Shown: piece after piece, positions 2,580-39,856 of the stretch
Layout: every line of letters begins with the position of its first letter
How positions within the stretch are numbered: the stretch's first letter is position 1
Assembly (NCBI GenBank): GCA_964583985.1
Contig: CAZOYD010000028.1
Coordinates: 1-39,856 of the forward strand
Direction: 5' to 3'
DNA: 39,856 nt
From: an uncultured archaeon
Lineage (GTDB): Archaea; Asgardarchaeota; Lokiarchaeia; Sigyniarchaeales; SOKP01
Position numbers and translations under genes: made by a program
Notes under the pieces: generated by a model
What the model saw: only the letters and a program-made list of their open reading frames with translations
The model's database searches: none
Told to the model about the DNA's origin: nothing

Positions 2580-4197
2580 AATCAAATACGTATTCAAACT
2601 GTAAAAGAGCAATTAATAACCAAAACGCCATTCTCAATTCAGCTTTTAAAGTCAATTTATCATTACTCCAATGAAAAGGGCTAGTTGCATCATTATTTTG
2701 AAATAAAAATGCTTTGGTAATGATCGAATTTAACATCACATTTACAGAAGGTTCTTCTTTATAATTTATATTTAACATCTTGAATATCAATAGAACCCGT
2801 GCCGTATCCGTCAAATTATCATTAATTAACCCCTCTTTAGTGATTAGTAGATTTAATTTTGCTAGATAAATTTTCTTAAACAATGTTAAATCGGTTTTAT
2901 TATCTAATAATTTTATTATACTTAAGTGACATAATAGATCTAAAGGAAGTGTACCCTCATCATTATTAATTTGCCTAAAATTAATTTGCTCAGATAACAA
3001 GTGTCTTTTTTCAGTAAGAACTACACCCCACTTCTCAAGAATTCTTAAGCTCAGTAATGAAAAATAATTCAGCATTAATTTCTCAGGCAAGTAAGATTTT
3101 AGTTCATTCTCGAGGAACATCTCAATATCCAATAAATCTATAATTTCAAGATCGTTTAATAAATTCAATTCAGATAAAATTGAAAGACCGAAGAAATTGC
3201 TTAGTGGGTTCGATATATGATACTTTCCGGTACTAAAGACCTTTCCGCTTATATAACCCTCTAAAATGGTGATGATTTCTTCCGTTTTGAAGGGTAATGA
3301 TAAACCATATATCTTATGGATACTAATGTAATAAAATAAACTTTCCAAATCCAAAAATTCGGGTTTTAATGCGAGAGAATCTAAATTTTTCAAGTTTATT
3401 TTCAATAAATTTTTGACCTTATTATTCAAGTCTGGAAGATTGCCGTAAAGATCAAAATAGTATTCTCCTTGTAATGATTCATATCTTTGTTCGGGTAACG
3501 ATAAGAAAACACTGTTTTGCTCTTTAGAATTTTGTATGTGAGGTAGAACTGGAGTTTTTAAAACTTCAATATTTCGTTCTTTAGCATCATGCAATTTTTT
3601 AAGAATATCCATGTCTTCATTTATTTTGTCAGAATTTTCGTCAGTTCTAATTTTTAATGTAATTGGATCAATTATTTTCTCAATGCTTGGAAAAAAAGCT
3701 TGAATCTTTATTAATTCTTTTTCTTGGAAAAAGAAATTTCTCTTCAATTCATCTAACTTTAATTTAAAATTATCTGGAAGTAGATCGAAGAGATCAAGAT
3801 TTTCTAATTTTTTGGTATCAATTTCAATAATGTATTCAATGATGATTTTTAAGAGGTTTGCATTAATGATATTTTGTCCGACAAACTTAAAAAGATCTTT
3901 ATAATCTTTCAAATCAGTTTTGCTTGCTAGTAAGAATTCTTTAGTAAGATTATCTTTAAAATCTATTGATTTAGAATTAATACCAATGGAATTTAACGCA
4001 GAGATAATAGTTTCAACCATCATATTTATTATTTTAATATGATTTTCTTCATTATTTCGAATTATGATTAAATCAATATCGATATTTTTATGTTCAAATA
4101 AATATAAACTATAGGAGTAAAATCGTTGATAATAGTCTAAAATCTCTGCTTGAAATGATTGAGATAATTGTGTTAACAAGTTTTTAATTTCTTCCAT
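2569..4197 (-). CDS. Hypothetical protein; C-terminal half resembles an (alpha/alpha) barrel of the prenyltransferase-beta/squalene-cyclase-repeat type
   Basis: 542-aa ORF with about six periodic helical motifs (e.g. SLFYYISIHKIYG, SNFFGLSILSELN, LNYFSLLSLRILE, DTARVLLIFKMLN). The fold is inferred. Confidence 0.45.
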   Translation of the reverse strand: MEEIKNLLTQLSQSFQAEILDYYQRFYSYSLYLFEHKNIDIDLIIIRNNEENHIKIINMMVETIISALNSIGINSKSIDFKDNLTKEFLLASKTDLKDYKDLFKFVGQNIINANLLKIIIEYIIEIDTKKLENLDLFDLLPDNFKLKLDELKRNFFFQEKELIKIQAFFPSIEKIIDPITLKIRTDENSDKINEDMDILKKLHDAKERNIEVLKTPVLPHIQNSKEQNSVFLSLPEQRYESLQGEYYFDLYGNLPDLNNKVKNLLKINLKNLDSLALKPEFLDLESLFYYISIHKIYGLSLPFKTEEIITILEGYISGKVFSTGKYHISNPLSNFFGLSILSELNLLNDLEIIDLLDIEMFLENELKSYLPEKLMLNYFSLLSLRILEKWGVVLTEKRHLLSEQINFRQINNDEGTLPLDLLCHLSIIKLLDNKTDLTLFKKIYLAKLNLLITKEGLINDNLTDTARVLLIFKMLNINYKEEPSVNVMLNSIITKAFLFQNNDATSPFHWSNDKLTLKAELRMAFWLLIALLQFEYVFDFMI

Positions 4198-4374
4198 TAT
4201 TTCTCATGCCAAATTATAGATAAAAATGAATTCTGCTATAACTCGAAGGTTATGTCAATAAATTAGAAGTATTATATTTAATTTTTTATCTTAGTAATAA
4301 TTAAAATAAAATGCTTAAAAACCATTTTAATCATCTAATAGATCATTATTAAATTGAGCACCTTTTAATTCAAT

Positions 4375-5094
4375 ATGACTAATTCTTGTTATAATAACTT
4401 TGCTAAGGATTATGATAATAAGAGAAAAAATCATTGGGTGCCATTGCATAATTTTTTACAGGATTTAGAATCATTAGATTATAGATTTGATGGAATTATT
4501 ATTGATTTAGGATGTGGAAATGGAAGAAATTTGCCATTATTAAAAGCTTCCAATAATAGCGTACTTGGAATAGATAAATCCCTTGAATTCTTAAATATAG
4601 CTAAAAATAGAAATGATTTACAGGATCATAACATCCATTTTTTGTTAAGCGATATGTTAACACTCCCAATTCGACCAAGTTCGATCAATTCAATATTTGC
4701 GATTGCTTCTATTCATCACGTGATGGATAAATCTGATAGAAGTCGTATAATGGCATTTTGTAATTCAATCCTTAAAAGAAATGGATATATAGTAATGTCT
4801 GTATGGAGAAGGTTTCAAAAGAAATATAGAACTTATTTCTTAATTGAATTCATAAAACAAAAGTTGTCATTAAAATATAAGAAAAAGCAAGAATTACTTG
4901 GTTTACATGAATTCGGAGACATTGTAATTCCTTGGACAGTTTCAAGCACACGAATTACACATAAGAGGCATTATCATTTATTCTCGAAAAATGAACTCAA
5001 ACGATTATTAAGTGAGTATAAAATTATTAGATTCCGAAAATTAGGAGGCCCCAATAGAAAGGATAATTACTTCATTTTAGCAAAAAAAAACTAA
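4375..5094 (+). CDS. Class I SAM-dependent methyltransferase, Trm9/ALKBH8-like (candidate tRNA wobble-uridine methyltransferase)
   Basis: Motif I IDLGCGNGR, plus IASIHH, MSVW, DIVIPW and RHYHLF motifs typical of the Trm9/ALKBH8 methyltransferase domain. Confidence 0.75.
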   Translation: MTNSCYNNFAKDYDNKRKNHWVPLHNFLQDLESLDYRFDGIIIDLGCGNGRNLPLLKASNNSVLGIDKSLEFLNIAKNRNDLQDHNIHFLLSDMLTLPIRPSSINSIFAIASIHHVMDKSDRSRIMAFCNSILKRNGYIVMSVWRRFQKKYRTYFLIEFIKQKLSLKYKKKQELLGLHEFGDIVIPWTVSSTRITHKRHYHLFSKNELKRLLSEYKIIRFRKLGGPNRKDNYFILAKKN

Positions 5095-5095
5095 T

Positions 5096-5602
5096 TTATT
5101 CTCCGTGGCAAATAATAGAAATAAAGCTCTTTTCCATGAAAGGTTTGAAATTCTCATAAAATTTATCAATAATTTCAGTATGAATATTGAATAGCCGCTC
5201 TGTCATGTCACAATAAAAAATTCCATGGATGCTCTTCGAAGGGTAAAATCTTTTATGCAACATTTTTGTACGTTTACCATACCAGTATGTGAATTCATGA
5301 GATAAATGCCATGTATTCTCTTTATTCAAAACTACCACACCTATACCATTATAAGTATCGATTGATCGTTGTATTTCTTTTGAGAAAAAAAAGGAACCTC
5401 GGGCTTTTTTTTCCCAAGATATATCAAGTTTAGCATTTGCTCCCCAGTACTCATCGTATTCATCATTAGAATGCATGACTACGGTTCCTTCATTCTCATT
5501 CCCTTCAAAACTAATTTCTTTAAACCACTTAGGCATGCTGTTAATTTTTACATTAGCTTCAGGTTTTTCATAGACATAATAATTGTATTCCATCTTTTTC
5601 AC
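5096..5602 (-). CDS. Hypothetical protein
   Basis: 168-aa ORF filling the space between neighbouring genes with natural composition; the start may be the ATG at 5593. Confidence 0.7.
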   Translation of the reverse strand: MKKMEYNYYVYEKPEANVKINSMPKWFKEISFEGNENEGTVVMHSNDEYDEYWGANAKLDISWEKKARGSFFFSKEIQRSIDTYNGIGVVVLNKENTWHLSHEFTYWYGKRTKMLHKRFYPSKSIHGIFYCDMTERLFNIHTEIIDKFYENFKPFMEKSFISIICHGE

Positions 5603-8549: not shown

Positions 8550-9962
8550 TTAAATATAAGTTTTTATCAAATCTTTTATATTTTTAACAAAATCAGATAA
8601 ATGCTTTTCAACATTTACTATACCTTGTTCTTTTTCCACGTATAAAAGAAGATAAAGATTATACTGATCGACGATTATTCTTTTAAAAATCACGTTTTTT
8701 GAATCATCAGTAATTCCAGATGATGTGAGATAGTCTTTTTTCAACAATTTAAATTCTTTAAATGTTTTAAATAATGTTTGATAATGTGGAGCAGAAATTT
8801 CAAATACTGTTTCGGAGATCTCAGATTTTGAATAACTGGATAATATAATACCATTATCATTTAGTAGCAAAATTGCCTCCGAATTTGTATTCAATGCAAA
8901 CTGCTTTAGCTGGTTTAAAAATAATTCGCGATTCGGACTTAATTGACTAAGACCAAAACTATATGCCGAAATCAAGGACCAGTGATCAAAGATAGATGTG
9001 TTGAACATTTTAAAGAAAAACCCTTCAGATTGTTTTTCTATATCAATAGTTACATTCTTAATTCGCTTTTTCATGTATTTTGTATCTTTCAAGTCAGGAT
9101 CATGTTTATTCAAGCAAATAACTATTGGTGGGAACTCATTTAGCTCTTTTAAATTATAAATTATTTCAGCATACATTTTTAGCGATTCTGCTATTCTTTC
9201 TTCATCTTGGATGTCAATAAAATAGAACAAAAGATCGATATTATATAGATAAAATTTACTTTCTTCGATAAATTTCTCACGATACGTTTTCTGACCTGCC
9301 AAATCCCAGATTGAAATTTGTGAATTTTGCTGTTCGAATAACTTTTCTTGCGATCGAGCAACTCCTTTAGTTGGTAAGACCTTTATAATTTCTGAATATC
9401 TCTTTTTAACTCCCAACAAGAAGCTAGTTTTTCCAGCACCATCAATCCCAGTAAATAAGATCTTAATTTGGCGTTTTATTGATAATGGATCTTCTAATTC
9501 TTCGGTAAATTCTATGAGTTCTGTTTTTAAACTTTGTATTGTTTTCTCAATTTCTGCAAAATCCTTAGTTACTTGGATTTTAGAGGCTGCTTTATCAATG
9601 ATGATTCTTAAGTATTTCATGTTTTCGTAGAAGAATACTCTATTAGACTGATCAATTAAGATTGTTATTGTAGACGCTTTCGCATTTCCACGAGCTTGAG
9701 CATCAGGAATCAAAAAAAAGTATGTTAATCCATTTAATTTCAAATCTGGAAAAGGAAGTATGCCAAAATAGCTAATTTCTTCTATAGATGAGCCGTCTTG
9801 ATAAATTGCATCCCCCATTAAAATTGATATCGTCTTCATGGCGATGAGTAACCGAGCTGATTCATCCATATCTCGTGGAAAATAAATTTTCGGCGTGGGA
9901 CCATCATCATCAAAAATACTGAATACAATAGCTTTTATAATTTCCGGTTTTTGGTCGCTCAT
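8550..9962 (-). CDS. uDENN/longin - Arf/Rag-like small GTPase - roadblock fusion protein
   Basis: N-terminal VFSIFDDDGPTP; G1 GIDGAGKT, G2 PT, G3 WDLAGQ, G4 NKHD, G5 TSIFD; C-terminal EAILLLNDNGIILS roadblock pattern. Confidence 0.85.
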   Translation of the reverse strand: MSDQKPEIIKAIVFSIFDDDGPTPKIYFPRDMDESARLLIAMKTISILMGDAIYQDGSSIEEISYFGILPFPDLKLNGLTYFFLIPDAQARGNAKASTITILIDQSNRVFFYENMKYLRIIIDKAASKIQVTKDFAEIEKTIQSLKTELIEFTEELEDPLSIKRQIKILFTGIDGAGKTSFLLGVKKRYSEIIKVLPTKGVARSQEKLFEQQNSQISIWDLAGQKTYREKFIEESKFYLYNIDLLFYFIDIQDEERIAESLKMYAEIIYNLKELNEFPPIVICLNKHDPDLKDTKYMKKRIKNVTIDIEKQSEGFFFKMFNTSIFDHWSLISAYSFGLSQLSPNRELFLNQLKQFALNTNSEAILLLNDNGIILSSYSKSEISETVFEISAPHYQTLFKTFKEFKLLKKDYLTSSGITDDSKNVIFKRIIVDQYNLYLLLYVEKEQGIVNVEKHLSDFVKNIKDLIKTYI

Positions 9963-16554: not shown

Positions 16555-17103
16555 TTAAATATTTTTTATTGGATTAAATTTATTTTGTGCAAAGATTTCA
16601 TTCAATTTATCAATAACCGCTTGAGGAGTATCGGCACCATAAATTTTATCAGTTCTCCTATCATCCAGTTGTTGTCCCGCCATTTTTGATGACCATCCTT
16701 CAACACAAGTAAGACCAATTATTGGTTTTTCATAGATCCATGCAAAACAAATTTCTGATAATGTTCCTGCTTTACCTGCTATTGCCACACACGCGTCTCC
16801 ACTCAAAACAACTACCACATTACGCGCTTGAGAAAATGGGATCGGTATAACAATGTCCACGTATTTATTTGCCTTATTTTTGTCTATAAAAGGGATAAGT
16901 CCTATTGTTAGCCCTCCTTCTTCTTTTACTCCAAAACAAACCGCTTCCATTACACCTGAAAGTCCTCCACATGATACCGCATATTTATTTCGAGCAAGTA
17001 ATCGCCCTAATTCGACAGCAACTTGCCTTGTTTGTTCATCGATTTCGCTTGCTCCAATTACGGCTATTGTTCCCTTAAATTTATCTTTGAAATTAAAACT
17101 CAT
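16555..17103 (-). CDS. LOG/SLOG-family nucleotide-binding protein (TIGR00725-like)
   Basis: IAVIGAS, CGGLSGVMEAVC, ARN, GKAGTLSEI. Confidence 0.9.
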   Translation of the reverse strand: MSFNFKDKFKGTIAVIGASEIDEQTRQVAVELGRLLARNKYAVSCGGLSGVMEAVCFGVKEEGGLTIGLIPFIDKNKANKYVDIVIPIPFSQARNVVVVLSGDACVAIAGKAGTLSEICFAWIYEKPIIGLTCVEGWSSKMAGQQLDDRRTDKIYGADTPQAVIDKLNEIFAQNKFNPIKNI

Positions 17104-17259
17104 GGCTTTTTAAAATCCTTTTTTTTATAATTTGTAATATTCTGGGAGTCTTTTTATTTGTTTAGAATATTTTTATCCAAAAAAAGATGTATTTTTGTAT
17201 TGACATTATTGATCATTAGATTGTTGAATAATGTTGATCAAAATGATCGAAAACAAAAA

Positions 17260-17266
17260 TTTATAT
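17260..17266 (+). promoter_or_regulatory. Candidate archaeal TATA box for the small zinc-finger gene
   Basis: TTTATAT preceded by an A-rich BRE-like run, 23-29 nt upstream of the ATG at 17289 (leaderless geometry). AT-rich background limits confidence. Confidence 0.35.
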
Positions 17267-17288
17267 GGTAGGAATCTAATATTTATAT

Positions 17289-17486
17289 ATGGAAACAAAA
17301 CATCGATTAAAACCAAGTATTTTTATAGCACCCCCTCGGGACGACACTACTGTTTATTGCCCGGATTGTGGATATGCAATGGAGAAAATCCCTCATACAC
17401 CTAAAAATAAAAAACCAATTTATCAATGTCCTAGATGTAATATATTTATTCCGGAACAAGTTTATGGCCTCTTAGATTTTAAATAA
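17289..17486 (+). CDS. Small CPxCG-type zinc-finger protein
   Basis: CPDCG...CPRC in 65 aa. Confidence 0.75.
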   Translation: METKHRLKPSIFIAPPRDDTTVYCPDCGYAMEKIPHTPKNKKPIYQCPRCNIFIPEQVYGLLDFK

Positions 17487-17633
17487 AGACTAATAAAGAG
17501 AATTAAATTTCCTTATGGAGCATATTGGGGTTTTTTTAGCTTCCTTCTTATTAATTAAATCTAGCCCTAAAGATAAATGAAATTTTGCAATCCATAATAT
17601 ATAATTTATTTTAAAATAAGATTTCGTCTTGTT

Positions 17634-18686
17634 TCACATTACCAATTTGTTTGAGGAATATCTCATTCTTTCTTGAATAATAAATATTAAATCATTCATT
17701 ATTGCAGAAGCAGCTTCGGCACCTCCTGCACCCCTTCCAGATAATACAATTTTACCGGCATTCTTAGTTTCTAATTCAATAATATTTAAAGAATCATTGA
17801 CGTTAAAATAAGAACTTTTATTAACAGGGTGAGGTTTTACAAATAAATGTCCATTTTTCGCAAATGATAATTGTTTGATAACTTGATTATTTAATTTTGC
17901 TAATTCAATATCATATTTATTGATATTTTCAATTCCCTTGATATTTACATCCTTAATAGTTAAGCCATAATCTAACAGTTCATCTGCGAGAATAACTAAT
18001 TTACCAGCAGCGTCGTAACCACTAATATCTAGATTTGGATTAGATTCTGCATAACCCAGATCTTGTGCTTCTTTCAAAGCCTGTTCAAAACGACATCCAT
18101 GATTGAACATTTTGCTGAGGATATAGTTTGAAGTCCCATTTAATATCGCAGTTATTCCGATTATTTTACTACCTTGTAAATTTCTTTTTATCGATAATAT
18201 GGGAACGCAACTTGCTACTGTAGCCTCGTATCTGATTAGCTGCATTCGATCTTGTGCTATTTTTTTAATATTTTTATAATCAAGATAAAGTGGAGCTTTA
18301 TTAGACGTTATAACATCCATCTTATTATTAAGAGCTTTTATAATATGTGATCTTGCTGGTTCTCCATTATCTGGAATTGTGGGAGTAGTTTCAATCATTA
18401 TATTAAGATTTAGTTTATCAATATAATCTAGAGCGCGATATCCAGATTTCCAATTTACAAGAGTCCGAAATTCTTTCCCTAATTTTAATAACCTATCTAA
18501 ATTTATCCCATTTTCGTCTAAAATCGCACCATCATTTTCAAAAATTCCTAAAACTTTAATATCAATCTTAAATCTACTGATAATAATTGGGTTTATCTCA
18601 TTTAATAATTGGAGAAAAGCAGTTCCAACATTTCCTTTACCAATTAATCCGATATTAAAATTCATGTTAAAGAAATTATGGCTCAA
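17634..18686 (-). CDS. hom: Homoserine dehydrogenase
   Basis: GKGNVG Rossmann motif, TSNKAP, YEATV, ILNGTSNYIL, LGYAESNP, DAAGK, GRGAGG. The start may be a downstream ATG. Confidence 0.93.
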   Translation of the reverse strand: MSHNFFNMNFNIGLIGKGNVGTAFLQLLNEINPIIISRFKIDIKVLGIFENDGAILDENGINLDRLLKLGKEFRTLVNWKSGYRALDYIDKLNLNIMIETTPTIPDNGEPARSHIIKALNNKMDVITSNKAPLYLDYKNIKKIAQDRMQLIRYEATVASCVPILSIKRNLQGSKIIGITAILNGTSNYILSKMFNHGCRFEQALKEAQDLGYAESNPNLDISGYDAAGKLVILADELLDYGLTIKDVNIKGIENINKYDIELAKLNNQVIKQLSFAKNGHLFVKPHPVNKSSYFNVNDSLNIIELETKNAGKIVLSGRGAGGAEAASAIMNDLIFIIQERMRYSSNKLVM

Positions 18687-20577: not shown

Positions 20578-22071
20578 ATGGAAGAATTAATAAAGTCCTC
20601 AATTTTTAATGGATTAGTATTCGCAGTCTATGATAAATTTGGTCCACAACCCATTTACATGTTTCCTAATCCTATTAGGAGAACTTTTCAAGATGATGTA
20701 AATCATGAATCTCAAAAAGATTTACTTGAATTAACAATGAGAGATTATACTCAAATATCAATAAAAAATCTCTCTCTCTTGATAGGGGATGGTTCTATTT
20801 TTGAGAATCCTAAAATACAGGAATTTAAACATCATGCAATCATTCCATTTCCTGATTTTCACTCTACATCTTTAACATATTTCCATTTCGTTGAAATCGA
20901 ACAATCTGAAAAACCCATAGCTACAGCATTTTCCCTATTAATAGATGAAAATCGTAGAAGCTTTCTGTATAATAATATGGATCGTTTACAACATATAATT
21001 ATAGATTTTTTTTTGAAATTTGATAAAGAATTATTTGGTAATTTAAAAACTCAAGAAGAAGTAGAATCTTTCTTTGAATCCCTTTTAAACCAAATGATGG
21101 AAATACAACAATCACCCTCTACCTCATTTTCAGCTCAAAGAAAAATGAAGATTTTATTTTCTGGATTGGATGATTCTGGGAAATCTTCCTTTCTTCTTTC
21201 CGTTGATAGAAAATATTCGAAATTAATTGGGGTAAAACCTTCTTTAGGAGCAAAAGTTAGTTCAATTGAAGCATTGGGGGCAACAATTTTTTTATGGGAT
21301 CTCGGAGGGCAACTCAGTCTGAGACAAAAGTACTTGAATAAAGCTCATATATATCTTTACGAAGCAGACCTTTTATTTTATTTCATTGACGTCAGAAATC
21401 AGAAGAGGTTCAAAGAGAGTTTGGAATATTTAAAAAATATTAAAGATGTATTGGCTAAATTTGAACAAAAGACTCCGATTATCTATGTTTTCTCAAAATC
21501 AGATCCCGATATTTTAAATTCAAGGAAAATTCAAAATAATATCAGTACTCTTACAAAAGCTATTGTTTCGGAGGGAAAAGCAGAAATATTTTTGACTAGT
21601 ATATTTGATCCATTCTCAATTTTAAGAGCTTTTAGTTCTGGCATCGCGAAATTAAGCCCAAATCGTGATTTAATAGAACATAATCTCAACCTCTTTTTAA
21701 AAGATACTAAAATATATTTAGCTTTATTGATGAGTGGCGATGGGTTAATTATTGCAGAAGTTTATACACCTAAAGCATCTAAAATCACTAAAATAAATGA
21801 ACCTCAAGAACTTTTAAACGTATTTGAACTCACTGGACCACAATTTGCCATCCTCTTTAAAATTTTCTCAAAATATAGATCTATTCCTCAGAATGAAGCT
21901 ATTTTTAAAGTAGCAAACTCTGTAATTTTGGTTAGAAAGGTAAAAATTTCAAATTTTGAAATGTTCATTTTATTGTTAGTGGATGATGAATCCGAAAAAG
22001 AAAATATCAATCTTAAATTACCGAAATTCATCGAAATTACAGCAGATTTGTTATTAACTTATATTTCTTAG
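20578..22071 (+). CDS. uDENN/longin - Arf/Rag-like small GTPase - roadblock fusion protein (paralogue of 8550..9962)
   Basis: VFAVYDKFGPQP; IIPFPD; G1 GLDDSGKS, G2 PS, G3 WDLGGQ, G4 SKSD, G5 TSIFD; shares LSPNR(D/E)L and the roadblock tail with the paralogue. Confidence 0.85.
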   Translation: MEELIKSSIFNGLVFAVYDKFGPQPIYMFPNPIRRTFQDDVNHESQKDLLELTMRDYTQISIKNLSLLIGDGSIFENPKIQEFKHHAIIPFPDFHSTSLTYFHFVEIEQSEKPIATAFSLLIDENRRSFLYNNMDRLQHIIIDFFLKFDKELFGNLKTQEEVESFFESLLNQMMEIQQSPSTSFSAQRKMKILFSGLDDSGKSSFLLSVDRKYSKLIGVKPSLGAKVSSIEALGATIFLWDLGGQLSLRQKYLNKAHIYLYEADLLFYFIDVRNQKRFKESLEYLKNIKDVLAKFEQKTPIIYVFSKSDPDILNSRKIQNNISTLTKAIVSEGKAEIFLTSIFDPFSILRAFSSGIAKLSPNRDLIEHNLNLFLKDTKIYLALLMSGDGLIIAEVYTPKASKITKINEPQELLNVFELTGPQFAILFKIFSKYRSIPQNEAIFKVANSVILVRKVKISNFEMFILLLVDDESEKENINLKLPKFIEITADLLLTYIS

Positions 22072-31271: not shown

Positions 31272-34184
31272 ATGAAAAATCAAGAATATCAGTATGTTAA
31301 ATTTTTTGATGACTTAAGAGTCAATGATGTATCGTTAGTGGGTGGAAAAAATGCATCACTTGGCGAATTACTGAGCTTTGGAATCCCTGTACCCCTTGGA
31401 TTTGCTGTTACTGCCAAAGCATATGATTACATTTTAGAAACAAATTATTTTAGAATTAAGGAGGAAGAGATCACCTTAAAAGAATACATTAATCGAGAAA
31501 TCAAGAAAATTGCTATAGAATTGAAAAACGAAGATATTAAGTCAATAAGCAAGGTTGATAAAATTTGTGCCGATATAAGATACGTAATCGAATCAGCCTC
31601 CATACCTGACAGCGTGAAAGACGAGATTTTAGAAGCTTATGCTAAATTATTGGAAAGAATTGGAAATGAAACAACATTTGCTATAAGAAGTTCTGCTACC
31701 GCTGAAGATTTACCAGACGCTTCTTTTGCCGGGCAACAAGATACTCATTTAAATATTTCGGGAGAAAAGCAAATTTTAGAATATATTCTTAAAGACATGG
31801 CTTCAGTATTTACTACAAGGGCAACAATGTATCGAGAAAGGGCGGGATTTGATCATTTTGCTGTAAAATTGAGCGTAGGAGTTCAAGAAATTGCTGGAGG
31901 TTTAGAAGGAGTTAAAGCTTCTGGAGTCATGTTTACTGAAGATCCTGATTCAGGTAATCCCAATGTCATCGTAATAAGAGCAACATGGGGTCTTGGTGAG
32001 TTAATTGTTCAAGGAATCGAAAAGGGTGATGAATTTATCGTTTTTAAACATGCTTCTAAATTAAGAATTATCAATCGCAGTCTGGTTAAGAAAGAAAAGA
32101 AAATGATATTTGATAAGAATAAGGGAGGGACAATCACAATATTCGTGGATGAAAATGAACAGAGAAAATTCTGTTTGGATGATAATCAAGTCATAATCCT
32201 AGCTGAATATGCAACAAAAATCCGTGAACATTATGCTCGTAACATGGATGTTGAATGGGCCTTGGGATATGATGGTAAAATTTATATCGTCCAAGCAAGA
32301 CCAGAAACGGTACATTCTCAAAAAGGAGATATTGAAGAAATTTTTTATCTATTAGAAGATCCTAAAGTTTTAATCAATAATGGATATTTAATAGAAAATA
32401 CTGGAACGGCAATAGGACGAAGGATTGGATATGGAAAAATTAAAGTTATTGAATCAATTAACGACGCATATCTATTAGAGGAGGGGGATATACTCATAAC
32501 TGAAGAAACTAATCCGGATTGGACGTCCTACATGGAAAATTTAGGAGGTGTAGTAACTGAAAGAGGAGGTCCAACATGCCATGCCGCAATAGTATCAAGA
32601 GAATTAAATATTGCTTCAATAGTAGGAGCTGATAATATTATTGAAAAAATTAAAGAAAAGAAACGCCAACAAGATTTAGATTATATTACTATCGATTGCA
32701 GTACGGGGGAACCAAGATTGTGGATAAAAGAAGTGGAGTATGATTTTGATACTATTGAATTTGCCCAATTACCTAAAACTAGAACACAAGTATTAGTTAA
32801 TTTAGGAATCCCTAAGGGAGCATTAAGTTCTGGCAAATATCCTGACGGCACTGGATTAGCACGATTAGAATTTATTATTAATGATGAAATTCAAATTCAC
32901 CCCAATGCTTTAATTGACTACGAAGCACTGTTAATGCGTTATGATATCTTGTTAGAACATCGTAAGCGAATTGAATCAATAAAAAAAAGTGATTTGTATC
33001 ATAAAGATCCATTTAGTGTTGAAATCAAACGTTTAAAAGATACAATTGATAAAATAGATGAATTAACAATCGGATATGAAGATAAAGAAGAATTTTATGT
33101 TGAACAACTCGCTGAAGGTATAGCAACTATTGCCGCTGGAGTTTGGAAAATACTCCCTAATGGTGAAATCGCCCCATGTGTCGTACGTTTATCAGATTTT
33201 AAGACTAATGAATATCAAAATTTATTAGGTGGGTGGATCTATGAAACTGTTGAAAATAATCCGATGCTAGGCTTTAGAGGATGCTCTCGTTATACTCATA
33301 ATGATTTTCAGAATGCCTTCTTGCTAGAATTGCGAGCAATTGCAAAAGCTCGTGAATGGGGACTCAATAATATAATACCAATGCTTCCATTTTGTCGATC
33401 CCCCGAAGAATGTAAGAAGATTATCGATCTCATGGAAAATGAAGGATTAATTAGAGGACAAGATTCCTTAAAAGTATTTGTCATGGCAGAAATTCCTTCT
33501 AATATTATCTGTGCAGATCTTTTCTGTGAATATGTCGATGGCTTTTCAATAGGGAGTAATGATTTGACAATGTTAACTTATGGTGTTGATCGGGATGAAG
33601 CAAAGTTAATTCCAATTGCAAAAAAAAATTCTTATAATACCAATAGTGTAGCTATACGACGATCAATTAGTCATTTAATAAAAATAGCACATGATTTTGG
33701 TAAAAAAGTGGGGATTTGTGGGCAAGCACCGAGTGATGATCCCGAATTTTTAAGGTTTTTGGTACAAGAAGGAATAGATTCTATTTCTCTCAATTTTGAC
33801 ACTTTTGCTCAAGGTAGAATTAATACCTGGCGTACTGAAATCATCGAAACAAAATTAACTGCCGAGAATAAATTGAAAATTTACGAATTTATTGATCAAT
33901 GCGATAAGCTAATTGAAAAGATTCGGGTACCCAGAGGAACGCTTAGAAACATGTTGAGAAAGCTAAAAGATAAGAGTCCTCCTAATTTAAAAAATATAAC
34001 AGGACAATTTGACACAATTTTTGAAAATGTGAATACCATGTCGCGTAACTTCATAATGGAGCTTAATAAAGAAAACCCAATGGATTTCAATACACTCTTC
34101 CAAATTAATCATTCAAAAATAAAAGAGTATGAAGAATTACTTCCAAAATTGATGAAAGCTATTAGAGAGTTCGGAATTTTCTAA
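31272..34184 (+). CDS. ppsA: Phosphoenolpyruvate synthase (pyruvate, water dikinase)
   Basis: VGGKNASLGE, RSSATAEDLPDASFAGQQDT, VQARPET, GGPTCHAAIVSRE (phospho-His), ENNPMLGFRG, FSIGSNDLT, GICGQAPS. Confidence 0.96.
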   Translation: MKNQEYQYVKFFDDLRVNDVSLVGGKNASLGELLSFGIPVPLGFAVTAKAYDYILETNYFRIKEEEITLKEYINREIKKIAIELKNEDIKSISKVDKICADIRYVIESASIPDSVKDEILEAYAKLLERIGNETTFAIRSSATAEDLPDASFAGQQDTHLNISGEKQILEYILKDMASVFTTRATMYRERAGFDHFAVKLSVGVQEIAGGLEGVKASGVMFTEDPDSGNPNVIVIRATWGLGELIVQGIEKGDEFIVFKHASKLRIINRSLVKKEKKMIFDKNKGGTITIFVDENEQRKFCLDDNQVIILAEYATKIREHYARNMDVEWALGYDGKIYIVQARPETVHSQKGDIEEIFYLLEDPKVLINNGYLIENTGTAIGRRIGYGKIKVIESINDAYLLEEGDILITEETNPDWTSYMENLGGVVTERGGPTCHAAIVSRELNIASIVGADNIIEKIKEKKRQQDLDYITIDCSTGEPRLWIKEVEYDFDTIEFAQLPKTRTQVLVNLGIPKGALSSGKYPDGTGLARLEFIINDEIQIHPNALIDYEALLMRYDILLEHRKRIESIKKSDLYHKDPFSVEIKRLKDTIDKIDELTIGYEDKEEFYVEQLAEGIATIAAGVWKILPNGEIAPCVVRLSDFKTNEYQNLLGGWIYETVENNPMLGFRGCSRYTHNDFQNAFLLELRAIAKAREWGLNNIIPMLPFCRSPEECKKIIDLMENEGLIRGQDSLKVFVMAEIPSNIICADLFCEYVDGFSIGSNDLTMLTYGVDRDEAKLIPIAKKNSYNTNSVAIRRSISHLIKIAHDFGKKVGICGQAPSDDPEFLRFLVQEGIDSISLNFDTFAQGRINTWRTEIIETKLTAENKLKIYEFIDQCDKLIEKIRVPRGTLRNMLRKLKDKSPPNLKNITGQFDTIFENVNTMSRNFIMELNKENPMDFNTLFQINHSKIKEYEELLPKLMKAIREFGIF

Positions 34185-34249: not shown

Positions 34250-34525
34250 CTAATCCTTGATCTTTTCCAATATTGACATGATTCGATAAATGGTCGTTCT
34301 CGAATGAAAAGGAATGTTAGCATCCATGGTAAGGTCATCCACTAAATAAATAACATTTGCTGCGAGGATTGCATCAGTCGCATCCTCATCCTCACGCGAA
34401 AGTTCATCAATACCTTTTTGGGCAACGCGTTTGATATTTCTTGGTACCGCACGATCTTGAATCATTGCCTCTAACAAAATCTTAACTTGATCAAATGCTT
34501 CCTTGGTTTCCTCGGGAGAAGGCAC
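34250..34525 (-). CDS. UPF0147-family archaeal protein
   Basis: DRAVPRNIKRVA...DANIPFHSRTTIY; GTG start with GGTG SD-like sequence upstream. Confidence 0.88.
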   Translation of the reverse strand: MPSPEETKEAFDQVKILLEAMIQDRAVPRNIKRVAQKGIDELSREDEDATDAILAANVIYLVDDLTMDANIPFHSRTTIYRIMSILEKIKD

Positions 34526-35104: not shown

Positions 35105-35422
35105 GTGATTAATAATATGGCAAAATTTGACCAAATAATGAAAGTTTTAGCGATTTTAGGCGGTCTAATAGCTCTGATAGTAGGACTTTTAGATCTTGTC
35201 GGTTTGAATTACGGTTTAGGAGCATCTTGGGCCGTTCCTTATCTTTTTCCTATAGTCGCAATAATTCTTGGTATCGTGGTACTTCTAAGTGCTTTTAAAG
35301 GAAGCCCAGTCCCTTTTACTGCAGTATGGTTATTAGTTTTAGGTATTTTAATTCTAATCTTCGGAAGCTGGTTAGCAGCAGTTTTAGTGATTATTGCTGG
35401 AATTTTAGGTTTTCTTAATTAA
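35105..35422 (+). CDS. Small hydrophobic membrane protein (3-4 TM)
   Basis: Almost entirely hydrophobic, Gly-rich helices; likely start is the ATG at 35117. Confidence 0.75.
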   Translation: MINNMAKFDQIMKVLAILGGLIALIVGLLDLVGLNYGLGASWAVPYLFPIVAIILGIVVLLSAFKGSPVPFTAVWLLVLGILILIFGSWLAAVLVIIAGILGFLN

Positions 35423-35647: not shown

Positions 35648-36229
35648 ATGATTGAAGATTTTATTGATTGTATCTGGATATTAGAAATTGAATCTGGAAT
35701 CGTTATTTATGAAGAAATTTATAAAGATGTAACAAAACAAGGAATATCAACAGATCTAATTTTAAATTTTCTTTCAGCCTTAGTTAGTTTTGCCGATGAA
35801 GTGTTTGCAGATGAGCTAAAATATATAAAGCTATCAAATCATAAGATCTTTTTTAATTTTTTAAAGCATATCATGTTGGTAATATCGATAACTGACAAGA
35901 TTTCTATTGAGGAAACGGAATTAAGCGTTTTAATTGATAGAATCGGTAAAAAATTTGAATCAAAGTTTGAGTACTTATATCACAATGAATTTTGGTATGT
36001 AAATATCGAGGTGTTTAATTCTTTTTCCAAAGATTTAAGAGAGTTCATTAATAGAGAACCAGAACCAATCAAAATAGTACATAGTATTAATTTTTCTGAA
36101 AAAATAAAAAAATTGAATGAATTAATTGATAATGAAACAAATAAATATTTAAACAGAAAGCAAAAACTCGAGAAAGTTTATGAAGAGAGGGTAGAGAAAT
36201 TAGAATCTAAAAAGAAAAACACCTCTTAA
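35648..36229 (+). CDS. Longin-like domain protein with C-terminal charged helix
   Basis: IWILEIESGIVIYE...DLILNFLSALVSFADEV...IGKKFESKF longin pattern. Confidence 0.7.
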   Translation: MIEDFIDCIWILEIESGIVIYEEIYKDVTKQGISTDLILNFLSALVSFADEVFADELKYIKLSNHKIFFNFLKHIMLVISITDKISIEETELSVLIDRIGKKFESKFEYLYHNEFWYVNIEVFNSFSKDLREFINREPEPIKIVHSINFSEKIKKLNELIDNETNKYLNRKQKLEKVYEERVEKLESKKKNTS

Positions 36230-36650: not shown

Positions 36651-36887
36651 TTATAATATCACGAACCATAAAACTAAAGCAATAATTCCCAGAACCAAAC
36701 CGCCCAAACCATAGCTTTTTGAACTATCGTATGCTATTCCAATGATACCGGCAATTATAGCAAGGGCGACTAGTATGTAAAAGAGGATATCTGCATAAGG
36801 AAAAGAGAATGCAAACTTCATCCACAATTCCAATATTATTGCTAGAATTCCCATAAGTAAAGCAAAAGTTCCTGCTGATCTTGACAC
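36651..36887 (-). CDS. Small 3-TM membrane protein
   Basis: Hydrophobic helices, GLGGLVLGIIAL. Confidence 0.7.
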   Translation of the reverse strand: MSRSAGTFALLMGILAIILELWMKFAFSFPYADILFYILVALAIIAGIIGIAYDSSKSYGLGGLVLGIIALVLWFVIL

Positions 36888-37062: not shown

Positions 37063-37542
37063 TTAATCATATTTTGCATTTTTTAATTCCTCAACAACGC
37101 TTTCGACTTTTGTTCCACAGAAATGGCAAATTTCTTCATACCAGGTAAACATGTTACCACATTTTTTACAGGTAAAACGAACCTTATGATGCGCTAACCA
37201 CTCCGTTACCTTGTTCTCTTTTAATAAATTTCGATCTTGCAAAGCAAGTGTAAAGTGGGGATGATGGTCAGAAGGATCTCTTTCAGGAATTTTCTGACAT
37301 AAATAATCTTCACACGTAAAACAATAATTTACTTGTTTTTCTTTGGCACATGAGCGAATTTCACATTTCGCACAATTCGGATAAACATGATCAGATTTAC
37401 AACCGTGACATTCCAAGTCCATTCCCTTACTCATTGTTTTCCATGGTTCTGGAATAGATTCTGGACGATTTTGCACGTGTGCTAATCGAATTATGCAACT
37501 GCCATAATATATTCCGCAATAAGCATTAAAAATATCTTTCAT
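37063..37542 (-). CDS. DUF3795-like cysteine-rich protein with C-terminal zinc ribbon
   Basis: AYCGIYYGSC, CHGCKS, CAKCEIRSCA, CFTCEDYLC, CKKCG...CHFCG. Confidence 0.8.
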   Translation of the reverse strand: MKDIFNAYCGIYYGSCIIRLAHVQNRPESIPEPWKTMSKGMDLECHGCKSDHVYPNCAKCEIRSCAKEKQVNYCFTCEDYLCQKIPERDPSDHHPHFTLALQDRNLLKENKVTEWLAHHKVRFTCKKCGNMFTWYEEICHFCGTKVESVVEELKNAKYD

Positions 37543-37801: not shown

Positions 37802-38080
37802 TTAATGAATTTGATTAACTTCTGCTCTTATCTCTGGAAATTTATTCCCTTTTATAAAAATACGAATACCAAGAATGATTAAAATTAATCCGACCACAGC
37901 TATGGCTACAGTTATAAATCCATATTGATACCACCAATTTGTCCAATATTCTTCTGGACTTAATGGAATATAAAATCCAATTGGTCCTACATAATTAAAT
38001 AAAATTGAGAAGATGGTATTTCCTATTAACAGATACCCTCCAAAGATTATTAAAATGACCCCATTAATTTTTTTATTCAA
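37802..38080 (-). CDS. Small 2-TM membrane protein
   Basis: Two hydrophobic helices; TTG start with GAGTGAG upstream. Confidence 0.65.
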   Translation of the reverse strand: MNKKINGVILIIFGGYLLIGNTIFSILFNYVGPIGFYIPLSPEEYWTNWWYQYGFITVAIAVVGLILIILGIRIFIKGNKFPEIRAEVNQIH

Positions 38081-38358: not shown

Positions 38359-39414
38359 ATGAGCGGCGAATTAATTCATTCAATTATTTATACTGAGTTT
38401 GATGATGAGATAGGTCCTAATCCATTGTTTTATCTTCCAAAAGAATTACCTGAGCACATACGGATGCTTGTTGGAATAAAAACAATAACAATTCTCTCAG
38501 GAGATCATGGATTTATCCCTGAATCGCTCATGATCATTCCTTTCCCCTCATTAAAATTAAAAGGAATCATAAAATATATAGAGAGACGGGATCCAGAGAG
38601 GAGAGGTAATGTCGCTCAATCTGCAATTACTTTTTTATTCAAGGAAATAGATGACATAATTTTTTATCGCTATATCGATTATTTAGACGCTCCATTTAAT
38701 GAGACGGCTCGAATTATCGGTGATCTCATATCTCAAAACGCTCCGCATGATGCGATTATTCAAGAATTAAACCATTTACGAGATAATATCCATTCCATAC
38801 TCATCCAACTTAAAGTTAAAGAAAATATTCAAGTTTCTTCCAAACCATTTCCCGAAATATTAAACAAAGGGGAAAATATCATCGAGTTCAAAATCAAGTT
38901 ATCAATTTGTGGAGATCCAGGTGTTGGAAAAACAAGCACTATTGTAAGATTTACTGATAATGCTTATAGTAGGCGTTATCTTCCCACGATGGGCGTATCA
39001 ATTAGCGACAAATCATTTAGACTTAAGAATAACGTGGTTGAATTAGTTTTATGGGATATTGCAGGGCAAGCTAAATTTCAAACGATGCGCAGGCATTTTT
39101 ACCAAGGAAGTGAAGCAGTCGTCTTGGTTTTTGATCTTACAAATCCCAAAAGCTTCTCAAGCATTAGTGATTGGTATACTGATATCCAAAGGAATATTTC
39201 TAATGAGGTGAAACCTTTAGGTTACCTTTTCGGAAATAAATGTGACATGATAGAGGAGCGGAAAATCAATAAAGAAGATGCCATAAAACTCGCAAGTAAT
39301 TTAAATTTAAATTATATCGAGACTTCGGCACTAACTGGGGAAAACATTGAATATGCATTTTTTCAGATTGCTGAAAAAGTTGTAAATTCCATAAGAGAAC
39401 CAATGTACAATTAA
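38359..39414 (+). CDS. uDENN/longin - Rab-like small GTPase fusion protein
   Basis: IYTEFDDEIGPNP; IIPFP; G1 GDPGVGKT, YLPTMGV, WDIAGQ, FQTMRRHFYQGS, GNKCD, ETSALTG. No C-terminal Cys. Confidence 0.9.
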   Translation: MSGELIHSIIYTEFDDEIGPNPLFYLPKELPEHIRMLVGIKTITILSGDHGFIPESLMIIPFPSLKLKGIIKYIERRDPERRGNVAQSAITFLFKEIDDIIFYRYIDYLDAPFNETARIIGDLISQNAPHDAIIQELNHLRDNIHSILIQLKVKENIQVSSKPFPEILNKGENIIEFKIKLSICGDPGVGKTSTIVRFTDNAYSRRYLPTMGVSISDKSFRLKNNVVELVLWDIAGQAKFQTMRRHFYQGSEAVVLVFDLTNPKSFSSISDWYTDIQRNISNEVKPLGYLFGNKCDMIEERKINKEDAIKLASNLNLNYIETSALTGENIEYAFFQIAEKVVNSIREPMYN

Positions 39415-39482: not shown

Positions 39483-39856
39483 ATGGATATCGAGCAAGCA
39501 ATATATGAGAGGAGAACAATCAGGAGATTTAAGCAAATGCCCATTCCTATAGAAATTTTAAAAAAGTTAATAGATTTAGCACGAGTAGCTCCAATGGCAA
39601 AAAATGTTCAAGCCTTGGAATTTGTTATTGTTCAAAATGCCGAACATGTAAAAAAAATATTTTCCTTTATTAGGTTTGCGGGATCTTTACCTGAAAATGA
39701 ACGAAAACCAGAACCTGGAAGAGAACCAACAGCATACATTATTGTAATGATCAATACCGATATAAAACAAGAATACTTCGATTTTGATGTGGGAGCCGCA
39801 GTAGAAAACATGTTGCTTGGTGCGGTTAAATATAATATAGGATGTTGTTGGATGGG
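39483..39856 (+). CDS. Nitroreductase-family protein (3' partial)
   Basis: Read by hand: MDIEQAIYERRTIRRF...ARVAPMAKNVQ...DVGAAVENMLLGAVKYNIGCCWM; GGAG SD upstream; runs off the window end. Confidence 0.9.
   Translation, partial: MDIEQAIYERRTIRRFKQMPIPIEILKKLIDLARVAPMAKNVQALEFVIVQNAEHVKKIFSFIRFAGSLPENERKPEPGREPTAYIIVMINTDIKQEYFDFDVGAAVENMLLGAVKYNIGCCWM

Follow-up and report, generated by a model that had tools for sequence, protein, structure and literature searches.

In eukaryotes, several GTPase-activating proteins (GAPs) are built on longin domains: FLCN-FNIP acts on RagC/D, the NPRL2-NPRL3 pair of GATOR1 on RagA/B, and C9orf72-SMCR8 on Arf and, reportedly, on Rab8a and Rab11a. Longin domains of this type carry a Gly-Pro (GP) motif, which is specific to GAP-type longins and which, together with a conserved arginine, is also found in some longins of Asgard archaea (PMC12290439, 2025). 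The same study reports that the GP motif and the conserved arginine are absent from non-GAP longins and describes, for FLCN, NPRL2, SMCR8 and some Asgard longins, an arrangement in which the arginine-bearing hairpin lies beside the b1-b2 turn. Fusions of longin domains to GTPases have been known from Lokiarchaeota since 2016, with five of them on Arf-like GTPases (Klinger 2016, via PMC4917890). Liu et al. (bioRxiv 10.1101/2020.10.19.343400) described Rag GTPases with fused longins as well as NPRL2-like longins on two-component domains, and Tran et al. 2024 (PMC10933270) catalogued L-G and L-G-R architectures in Prometheoarchaeum syntrophicum MK-D1. The text of the latter study places longin fusions under the Rag/Arf-like class, and its Supplementary Fig. 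5 lists the protein WP_147663426.1 as 'LG' in the Rab clade; the longin-G architecture as such is therefore not new. Here, we describe a gene of this kind, P0003, which lies near the end of a 39,856-nucleotide contig (CAZOYD010000028.1, assembly GCA_964583985.1) of an uncultured archaeon of the Lokiarchaeia and which encodes a longin domain fused to a Rab-like GTPase. The family of longin-Rab-like fusions is referred to as L-Rab, and the whole contig as the window.

The window has a G+C content of about 30% and belongs to a genome of 3.8 Mb in 138 contigs. The open reading frame (ORF) of P0003 begins with an ATG two codons past an in-frame stop, and the encoded protein has the Asgard 'LG' layout, in which an N-terminal longin domain directly precedes a small GTPase domain; no membrane part is predicted. 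The reading that we prefer, and to which we assign a probability of roughly 55%, is that regulator and switch are united in one chain: judged from sequence motifs and the predicted fold, the GAP-type longin domain would act as a built-in arginine-finger GAP for the Rab-like G domain, probably within a longin dimer. L-Rab is thereby put forward as a compact archaeal candidate for a GTPase that has its off-switch built into the same chain.

A preliminary description of the locus, which had been made from the sequence letters, had proposed the longin-Rab layout, and its observations are borne out. The motif strings that it quoted for the longin part (EFDDEIGPNP, residues 13-22; IKTITILSGD, 40-49; IIPFPSLKL, 59-67; DPERRG, 78-83) and for the G domain (WDIAGQ, 232-237; RRHFYQG, 244-250; NKCD, 293-296; ETSA, 321-324) are all present, and the position of the R82 codon and the C-terminal residues EPMYN are as it gave them. 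A roadblock domain is lacking, as it had stated, since the chain stops directly after the G domain, and so is a prenylatable C-terminal cysteine, which is found among the last five residues in 0 of 94 family members. The predicted N-terminal longin fold and the homology of this domain to the N-termini of two Rag-like proteins encoded in the window were also recovered. Of the arginine pair R82/R81 that it had singled out, R82 is conserved, but R81 is variable.

The fold of the N-terminal domain was predicted with AlphaFold 2 (AF2) for residues 1-166, using a 146-sequence alignment. The model reaches a predicted local distance difference test (pLDDT) score of 90.8 and a predicted template modelling (pTM) score of 0.85, and it shows a five-stranded antiparallel sheet in the order b1-b2-a1-b3-b4-b5-a2-a3, for which DSSP assigns strands to residues 8-15, 19-26, 58-62, 67-77 and 85-95 and helices to residues 32-48, 96-125 and 130-160. 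The nearest solved structure is 8yqg_B, the longin of a Lokiarchaeota roadblock-longin protein (Z 18.8, root mean square deviation 2.1 over 144 residues), followed by the Lst4 longin (Z 13.8), chains of FLCN complexes (13.2 and 12.6), GATOR1 chains (10.9-12.2) and chains of the C9orf72-SMCR8 complex (about 11-12, best 11.9). The NPRL2 chains align nearly collinearly with the model (model residues 2-166 to chain residues 3-172). Longins of guanine nucleotide exchange factors (GEFs), SNAREs and adaptors score lower, with Z 8.5-9.4 for TRAPP, DENND1, Mon1-Ccz1, Ykt6 and sedlin. Foldseek returned the same set of neighbours, and all top matches are longin domains. In the predicted model, the domain is thus structurally closer to the GAP-type longins (FLCN/FNIP, NPRL2/NPRL3, SMCR8/C9orf72) than to the longins of GEFs, SNAREs and adaptors. 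This ranking bears on the alternative that the longin is a built-in GEF or a sensor of the nucleotide state, comparable to the DENN, TRAPP and Mon1-Ccz1 longins on eukaryotic Rabs. The longin-fold Rab regulators of eukaryotes are mostly GEFs, and the longins of DENND1, TRAPP and Mon1-Ccz1 are indeed detectable as structural neighbours (Z 8.7-9.4); however, they lie well under the GAP-type longins (Z 11-14), a DENN core is missing, and the GP motif and the conserved arginine are features reported absent from non-GAP longins (PMC12290439). A GEF or sensor function is therefore considered unlikely.

The domain has the GP motif of GAP-type longins and a conserved arginine. The GP motif opens the second strand, and R82 and G83 are located in the b4-b5 hairpin, which, according to the topology of the AF2 model, lies at the same end of the longin sheet as the b1-b2 turn. 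In the 146-sequence alignment, an arginine occupies the position of R82 in 63 of 70 Rab-fused modules, in 12 of 30 Rag-fused modules and in 37 of 46 other module sequences. The designation of R82 as an arginine finger, and thus as a putative counterpart of FLCN R164, NPRL2 R78 and SMCR8 R147, is a prediction from its position, its conservation and the fold neighbours of the domain.

The second half of the protein is a Rab-like GTPase. A Pfam scan of the 351-aa protein assigns residues 180-342 to the Ras family (E 2e-45), whereas the Gtr1_RagA family matches the G domain with an E-value of 6e-5 only. The best 60 sequence relatives of residues 176-345 in the PDB are all Rab, Ypt or Sec4 proteins (E 4e-36 to 8e-29, with Rab8A at 4e-36), and the PDB matches to Rab8A, Rab1 and Ypt1 range from about 1e-36 to 1e-33. 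As the prenylatable cysteine is absent, the domain is named 'Rab-like' rather than a bona fide Rab. The motifs G1 to G5 are all intact, including Thr210, and together with the catalytic Gln237, which is present in 94 of 94 family members, they fit a GTPase that would need only an arginine supplied in trans. For the Rab paralogues of MK-D1, which lack an intrinsic arginine in switch I, it was likewise noted that they 'may require GAPs' (Tran 2024, PMC10933270). The position equivalent to Gly12 of Ras is occupied by a proline (P187, 38917-38919), as it is in about 50 of 60 L-Rab representatives. This proline is rare among the other Rab-like GTPases of the genome (7 of 55); the idea that it is a co-adaptation specific to the fusion was rejected, since the nearest stand-alone GTPase is among those seven. 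The features of the locus are compiled in Table 1.

Table 1. Features of the L-Rab gene and of related or adjacent genes in the window
Feature	Position	Strand	Evidence
Longin-linker-Rab-like GTPase gene	38359..39414	+	ORF, 351 aa plus stop; 928 homologues
Longin domain, residues 1-160	38359..38838	+	AF2 model, structural matches, Foldseek
GP motif, G19-P20	38413..38418	+	Opens strand b2; near-invariant in 146 module sequences, all architectures
R82 codon, Arg of D-x-x-x-R-G motif in b4-b5 hairpin, candidate arginine finger	38602..38604	+	Conservation, hairpin position in AF2 model
Linker, residues 161-176	38839..38886	+	Predicted disordered; pLDDT <50 at 160-172 (full-length AF2 model)
Rab-like G domain, residues 177-351	38887..39411	+	Pfam Ras E 2e-45; PDB Rabs; GTPase tree
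P-loop GDPGVGKT (185-192), Pro at Ras Gly12 position	38911..38934	+	Sequence motif
Switch II DIAGQ (233-237), catalytic Gln237 kept	39055..39069	+	Q in 94/94 family members
G4 NKCD (293-296)	39235..39246	+	Sequence motif
G5 ETSA (321-324)	39319..39330	+	Sequence motif
Paralogous module (DAQARG) on Rag-like GTPase with roadblock domain	8550..9962	-	32% identity, E 5e-20 (N-terminal 175 aa)
Paralogous module without Arg, on second Rag-like GTPase with roadblock domain	20578..22071	+	Alignment
Nitroreductase-family gene, downstream neighbour	39483..39856	+	Cut by window and contig end

The fusion is widespread and stable in length. At E <= 1e-3, 928 homologues of the full-length L-Rab protein were found, and the 120 homologues listed are about 313-358 aa long (mostly about 350), cover 87-100% of the query and show identities down to about 53%. 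The closest relatives are encoded in metagenome-assembled genomes (MAGs) labelled Promethearchaeota/Lokiarchaeota (Asgard archaea). The complete fusion is encoded by MAGs with the labels Promethearchaeota/Promethearchaeia, Promethearchaeum sp., Hel-, Thor-, Hermod- and Hodarchaeota, and the full-length homologues in the Promethearchaeum MAGs have identities of 38-48%. Based on the 928 homologues, the predominant length of about 350 aa among the 120 listed and the presence in several Asgard groups, the fusion is under purifying selection. A profile built from three module sequences picked up 219 representatives among 1.8 billion proteins; in the best 150 of these, the module is located on a Rab-like G domain in 50 cases and on a Rag-like one in 30, of which 22 have a detected roadblock domain, and the remaining 70 are fragments, stand-alone modules and fusions to other parts. 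One such fusion is P0189 (518 aa), in which the longin module is joined to a TrmB-type winged-helix DNA-binding domain. Pfam has no match in residues 1-175 (E <= 1 for the whole protein, E <= 0.1 in a scan of the module), and this blank is the only point found in favour of a chance or annotation artefact, in which a stand-alone Rab-like gene would have acquired a spurious N-terminal extension. This explanation is refuted by the conservation of the full-length ORF over nearly the entire query, by the module profile and by the high-confidence fold of the N-terminal domain, and it has practically no chance of being correct.

The preliminary description had further suggested that the module is portable across GTPase subfamilies, and the genome offers several examples. 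The L-Rab module aligns with the N-termini of both Rag-like proteins of the window over the GP, K-T-I-x-L-x-G-D, PFP and R-G blocks. A third copy is encoded on contig 107 (2070-5438, minus strand; L087, 1123 aa). In this protein, the longin module (321-466, with IRGG) comes after an N-terminal region and an Arf-like G domain (146-307), and it precedes two PAS domains and the ATPase domain of a histidine kinase. In addition, contig 49 (C49) harbours a second L-Rab gene (16608-17639, minus strand; L088, 344 aa), which forms a long branch. Separate phylogenies of the longin and G domains, which had been recommended, were calculated with 145 rows for the module and with 57 of the approximately 76 small GTPases of the genome. 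In the G-domain tree, a branch valued 100 parts 10 Rag-like from 47 Rab/Ras-like domains, and P0003 and its C49 paralogue are sisters inside the Rab-like side, adjoining stand-alone GTPases. The G domains thus fall into deeply separated clades, but the module tree requires a single label change to split Rab-fused from Rag-fused modules. One change suffices, which implies that each fusion is old and stably inherited; frequent domain shuffling was therefore rejected for the Rab/Rag pair. Portability is thus partly supported: one genome has the module on Rab-, Rag- and Arf-like G domains, and the suggestion holds in substance, but the term 'shuffling' overstated the case. The parallel drawn with the DENN regulators of eukaryotes is loose, as the protein lacks a DENN domain. 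N-terminal extensions of about 160 aa are also found on several further Rab-like GTPases encoded in the genome (C63:12279-13253, minus strand; C114:2376-4010, plus strand; C16:48944-52183; C1:169187-170197; C3:2105-3196), and two of these show weak roadblock-type matches (MAPKK1_Int, Robl_LC7). Judging from these matches, the Rab-like switches of this genome may be headed by a longin or by a roadblock-type domain.

The varied company of the module also feeds another explanation, in which the longin serves as a platform for docking, dimerisation or localisation, or in which it is a GAP for a different GTPase and its activity is regulated by the fused G domain. In the first case, it would recruit the switch to a partner or to the membrane in place of prenylation; in the second, the arginine would act on a Rag-like, an Arf-like or another Rab-like protein. 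Longin and roadblock domains have been described as general GTPase platforms (Levine 2013), and none of the 94 family members has a cysteine for a lipid anchor, so that some other targeting device would be needed. Modules without a GTPase, with a TrmB winged helix or other C-terminal regions, and modules combined with PAS and histidine-kinase parts are known as well. The GTPase-free fusions indicate that the module can work with unlinked partners, and the small GTPases encoded in the genome (about 76) are possible targets. However, the fusion is ancient and stable and its linker is short, for which a functional link between the fused domains is the simplest reading. Moreover, R82 and the GP motif are kept more strongly in the Rab-fused than in the Rag-fused class. 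A platform, or a GAP directed at another GTPase, is therefore regarded as a possible but clearly less probable role than the built-in GAP.

L-Rab genes often occur in pairs. In a sample of 63 loci, made up of 62 related loci and the window, about 33 contain two nearby co-oriented L-Rab genes, of which the upstream one belongs to a group termed B and the downstream one to a group termed A, which includes P0003. Examples are L005 (2838-3875 with 4098-5147), L006, L007, L020-L026, L028 and L030, among others. Arginine is found at the position of R82 in 41 of 48 group A and in all 31 group B orthologues, and both groups keep the GP motif, R82 and Gln237. A split into a catalytic and a non-catalytic partner, as in FLCN/FNIP, was for this reason rejected for A versus B. 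No group B orthologue was detected in the genome of the window by blastp or tblastn. The second L-Rab gene of this genome, on C49, is divergent and A-like, and its motifs suggest that its product could pair with P0003 without being catalytic itself.

Under the preferred built-in GAP reading, a flexible linker some 16 residues long would tether the longin to a catalytically competent Rab-like GTPase. The longin would dock on the nucleotide face of the G domain, and its b4-b5 hairpin, which lies beside the GP motif, would insert R82 close to the gamma-phosphate, where the arginine would complement Gln237 and thereby speed up the hydrolysis of GTP. A longin-longin dimer, in which each arginine serves the G domain of the partner or its own, appears to be the more likely geometry, because longin GAPs are dimeric, 8yqg was deposited as a dimer and the family often comes as a tandem pair. 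The result would be a dimerisation-gated, self-limiting switch, and the fusion could stand in for the separate GAP and for the cycle of prenylation and GDP dissociation inhibitor (GDI) on which eukaryotic Rabs depend.

Several observations weigh against this reading. In the longin of the C49 copy, GP is replaced by EP and the R-G motif is lost (ESSGQEIPRRS), and in group A, 6 of 48 members have a lysine at position 82. In the full-length AF2 model, the pTM is 0.52 and the linker is disordered; the orientation of the two domains is not trustworthy, so the model cannot decide between action in cis and in trans. A permanently tethered GAP would, unless it is gated, keep the switch in the GDP form, and most of the longin and DENN domains directed at Rabs in eukaryotes function as GEFs. 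No assay of an L-Rab protein was found in the literature. Finally, the Pfam families Folliculin (PF11704), NPR2 (PF06218) and C9orf72-like (PF15019) have no match in the window's own module, and profiles of 31-32 modules searched against all PDB sequences reach only 8yqg, which lacks the arginine (E 1.7e-6); FLCN, NPRL2 and SMCR8 chains were not retrieved in this search even at E 10. Among related modules, weak Folliculin matches occur in 7 of 32 (best 1.3e-4). In the relative P0001, the match covers residues 79-136 (E 3e-4), and the relative P0241 exceeds the Folliculin gathering score. As the sequence link to the eukaryotic GAP longins is thin, it is the fold, the motifs and the weak Folliculin matches in relatives that carry it. 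Leads from the ESM Atlas were sub-threshold only (0.86-0.88; one cluster with 19% NPR2 members).

The gene downstream of P0003 encodes a member of the nitroreductase family. Of the 63 loci, 47 have a same-strand nitroreductase homologue downstream, with a median gap of 33 bp and mostly 12-30 bp after the group A gene, and the association extends over MAGs labelled Promethearchaeota, Thor-, Hermod- and Hodarchaeota. The family assignment was made on the orthologue of locus L004 (3514-4092), which matches Pfam Nitroreductase with an E-value of 5.5e-23. From this gene order, the nitroreductase gene is likely an operon partner of L-Rab. The tandem A/B pair and the nitroreductase neighbour are new relative to the preliminary description. 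They also enter into a more far-reaching version of the built-in GAP reading, in which L-Rab would be a dimerisation-activated GTPase: the longins would pair pseudo-symmetrically in the manner of FLCN-FNIP, and each R82 would act across the dimer to fire a Rab-like G domain. In most genomes, the tandem A and B paralogues would form the pair, whereas in the genome studied here P0003 would pair with a second copy of itself or with the degenerate protein from C49, and the nitroreductase-family gene might provide the input or the output of the switch. Such a protein would represent a pre-eukaryotic ancestor, still in one chain, of the longin GAP complexes that are now heterodimeric, and the first clients of these complexes would have included Rab-like as well as Rag-like switches. 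This version must be considered highly tentative and is rather improbable in its entirety.

Further genes lie in the vicinity of L-Rab. In relatives, L-Rab lies about 2-2.5 kb downstream of a gene for a 970-aa protein (homologue of the window ORF 31272-34184) and of a UPF0147 gene (34250-34525 in the window); in the window, the same interval measures about 3.8 kb and holds genes for small membrane proteins (35105-35422, 36651-36887 and 37802-38080), a cysteine-rich DUF3795 protein (37063-37542) and a 193-aa protein (35648-36229, plus strand). The latter has a very weak match to Fuz_longin_1 (E 0.036) and a coiled-coil tail and, on the basis of this match, may belong to the divergent longin-like proteins as well, although it escapes the module profile. 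In 31 related loci, a gene in the neighbourhood of L-Rab encodes a homologue of a 405-aa protein that has a TIR domain at its C-terminus (e.g., L005:5318-6532), and none was found in this window.

Eukaryotic Rabs are served by TBC GAPs, which are unrelated to longin GAPs, and the L-Rab protein allows one to ask whether the longin GAP mechanism also served Rab-type switches. With 351 aa, the Rab-like fusion is small and widely conserved and would thus be a convenient test of a pre-eukaryotic arginine-finger mechanism of longin GAPs. It has been asked on which GTPases the Asgard longins with a GP motif act (PMC12290439), and by Rosetta-stone logic the fusions offer an answer: the presence of the same module on Rab-, Rag- and Arf-like G domains in one genome names the likely clients of archaeal longins. 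The current picture of Asgard GTPase signalling is not changed by this locus; what is gained is a defined test object and a conserved trio of genes, namely the L-Rab gene, its paralogue and the nitroreductase gene.

The closest described protein, WP_147663426.1 of MK-D1, resembles L-Rab in the order of longin and G domain and in nearly identical motifs (GDPPVGKTS, WDLAGQSKF, VLVFDLT, GNKCDL); in Tran 2024, however, it is a catalogue entry only, with no discussion of its longin subtype, the GP and arginine motifs, a paralogue pair or the neighbouring genes. We found no paper on a GAP-type longin on a Rab-like G domain or on its paralogue pair or neighbours, nor one for the LokiRag or 8yqg structures. 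The Asgard longins of the FLCN/SMCR8 type (NPRL2-like) described in PMC12290439 and by Liu et al. are of the same subtype and have both motifs at the same structural places. These studies leave the client GTPases open and suggest ArfR or Rag, whereas in P0003 the module and a Rab-like G domain are covalently linked. Structure 8yqg is the best structural match and the only sequence-profile match in the PDB and has the GP motif in common with L-Rab, but the residue aligned with R82 is not an arginine, and its fusion partner is a roadblock domain instead of a GTPase. The two Rag-like proteins of the window possess a homologous module as well; they differ in the Rag-like G domain followed by a roadblock domain, and in the module tree the single split sets their modules apart from that of P0003.

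With the eukaryotic longin GAP complexes, L-Rab has in common the fold (Z 11-14), the GP motif and the presence of a conserved arginine in a loop of the longin. The eukaryotic proteins, however, are separate from their GTPases, have DENN or NPRL C-terminal domains and form heterodimers of an arginine-bearing and an arginine-less subunit. In L-Rab, neither a C-terminal DENN domain nor an NPRL2-specific domain follows the longin; the Rab-like G domain stands in this place, and the chain ends at residue 351. The GTPase is thus part of the same chain, both tandem groups have the arginine, and in sequence the resemblance does not rise above the Pfam thresholds. The eukaryotic Rabs (Rab8, Rab1/Ypt1, Sec4) are the closest sequence relatives of the G domain and likewise have intact G1-G5 motifs and the glutamine of switch II; L-Rab differs from them in the missing prenylation cysteine, the proline at the Gly12 equivalent and the N-terminal longin.

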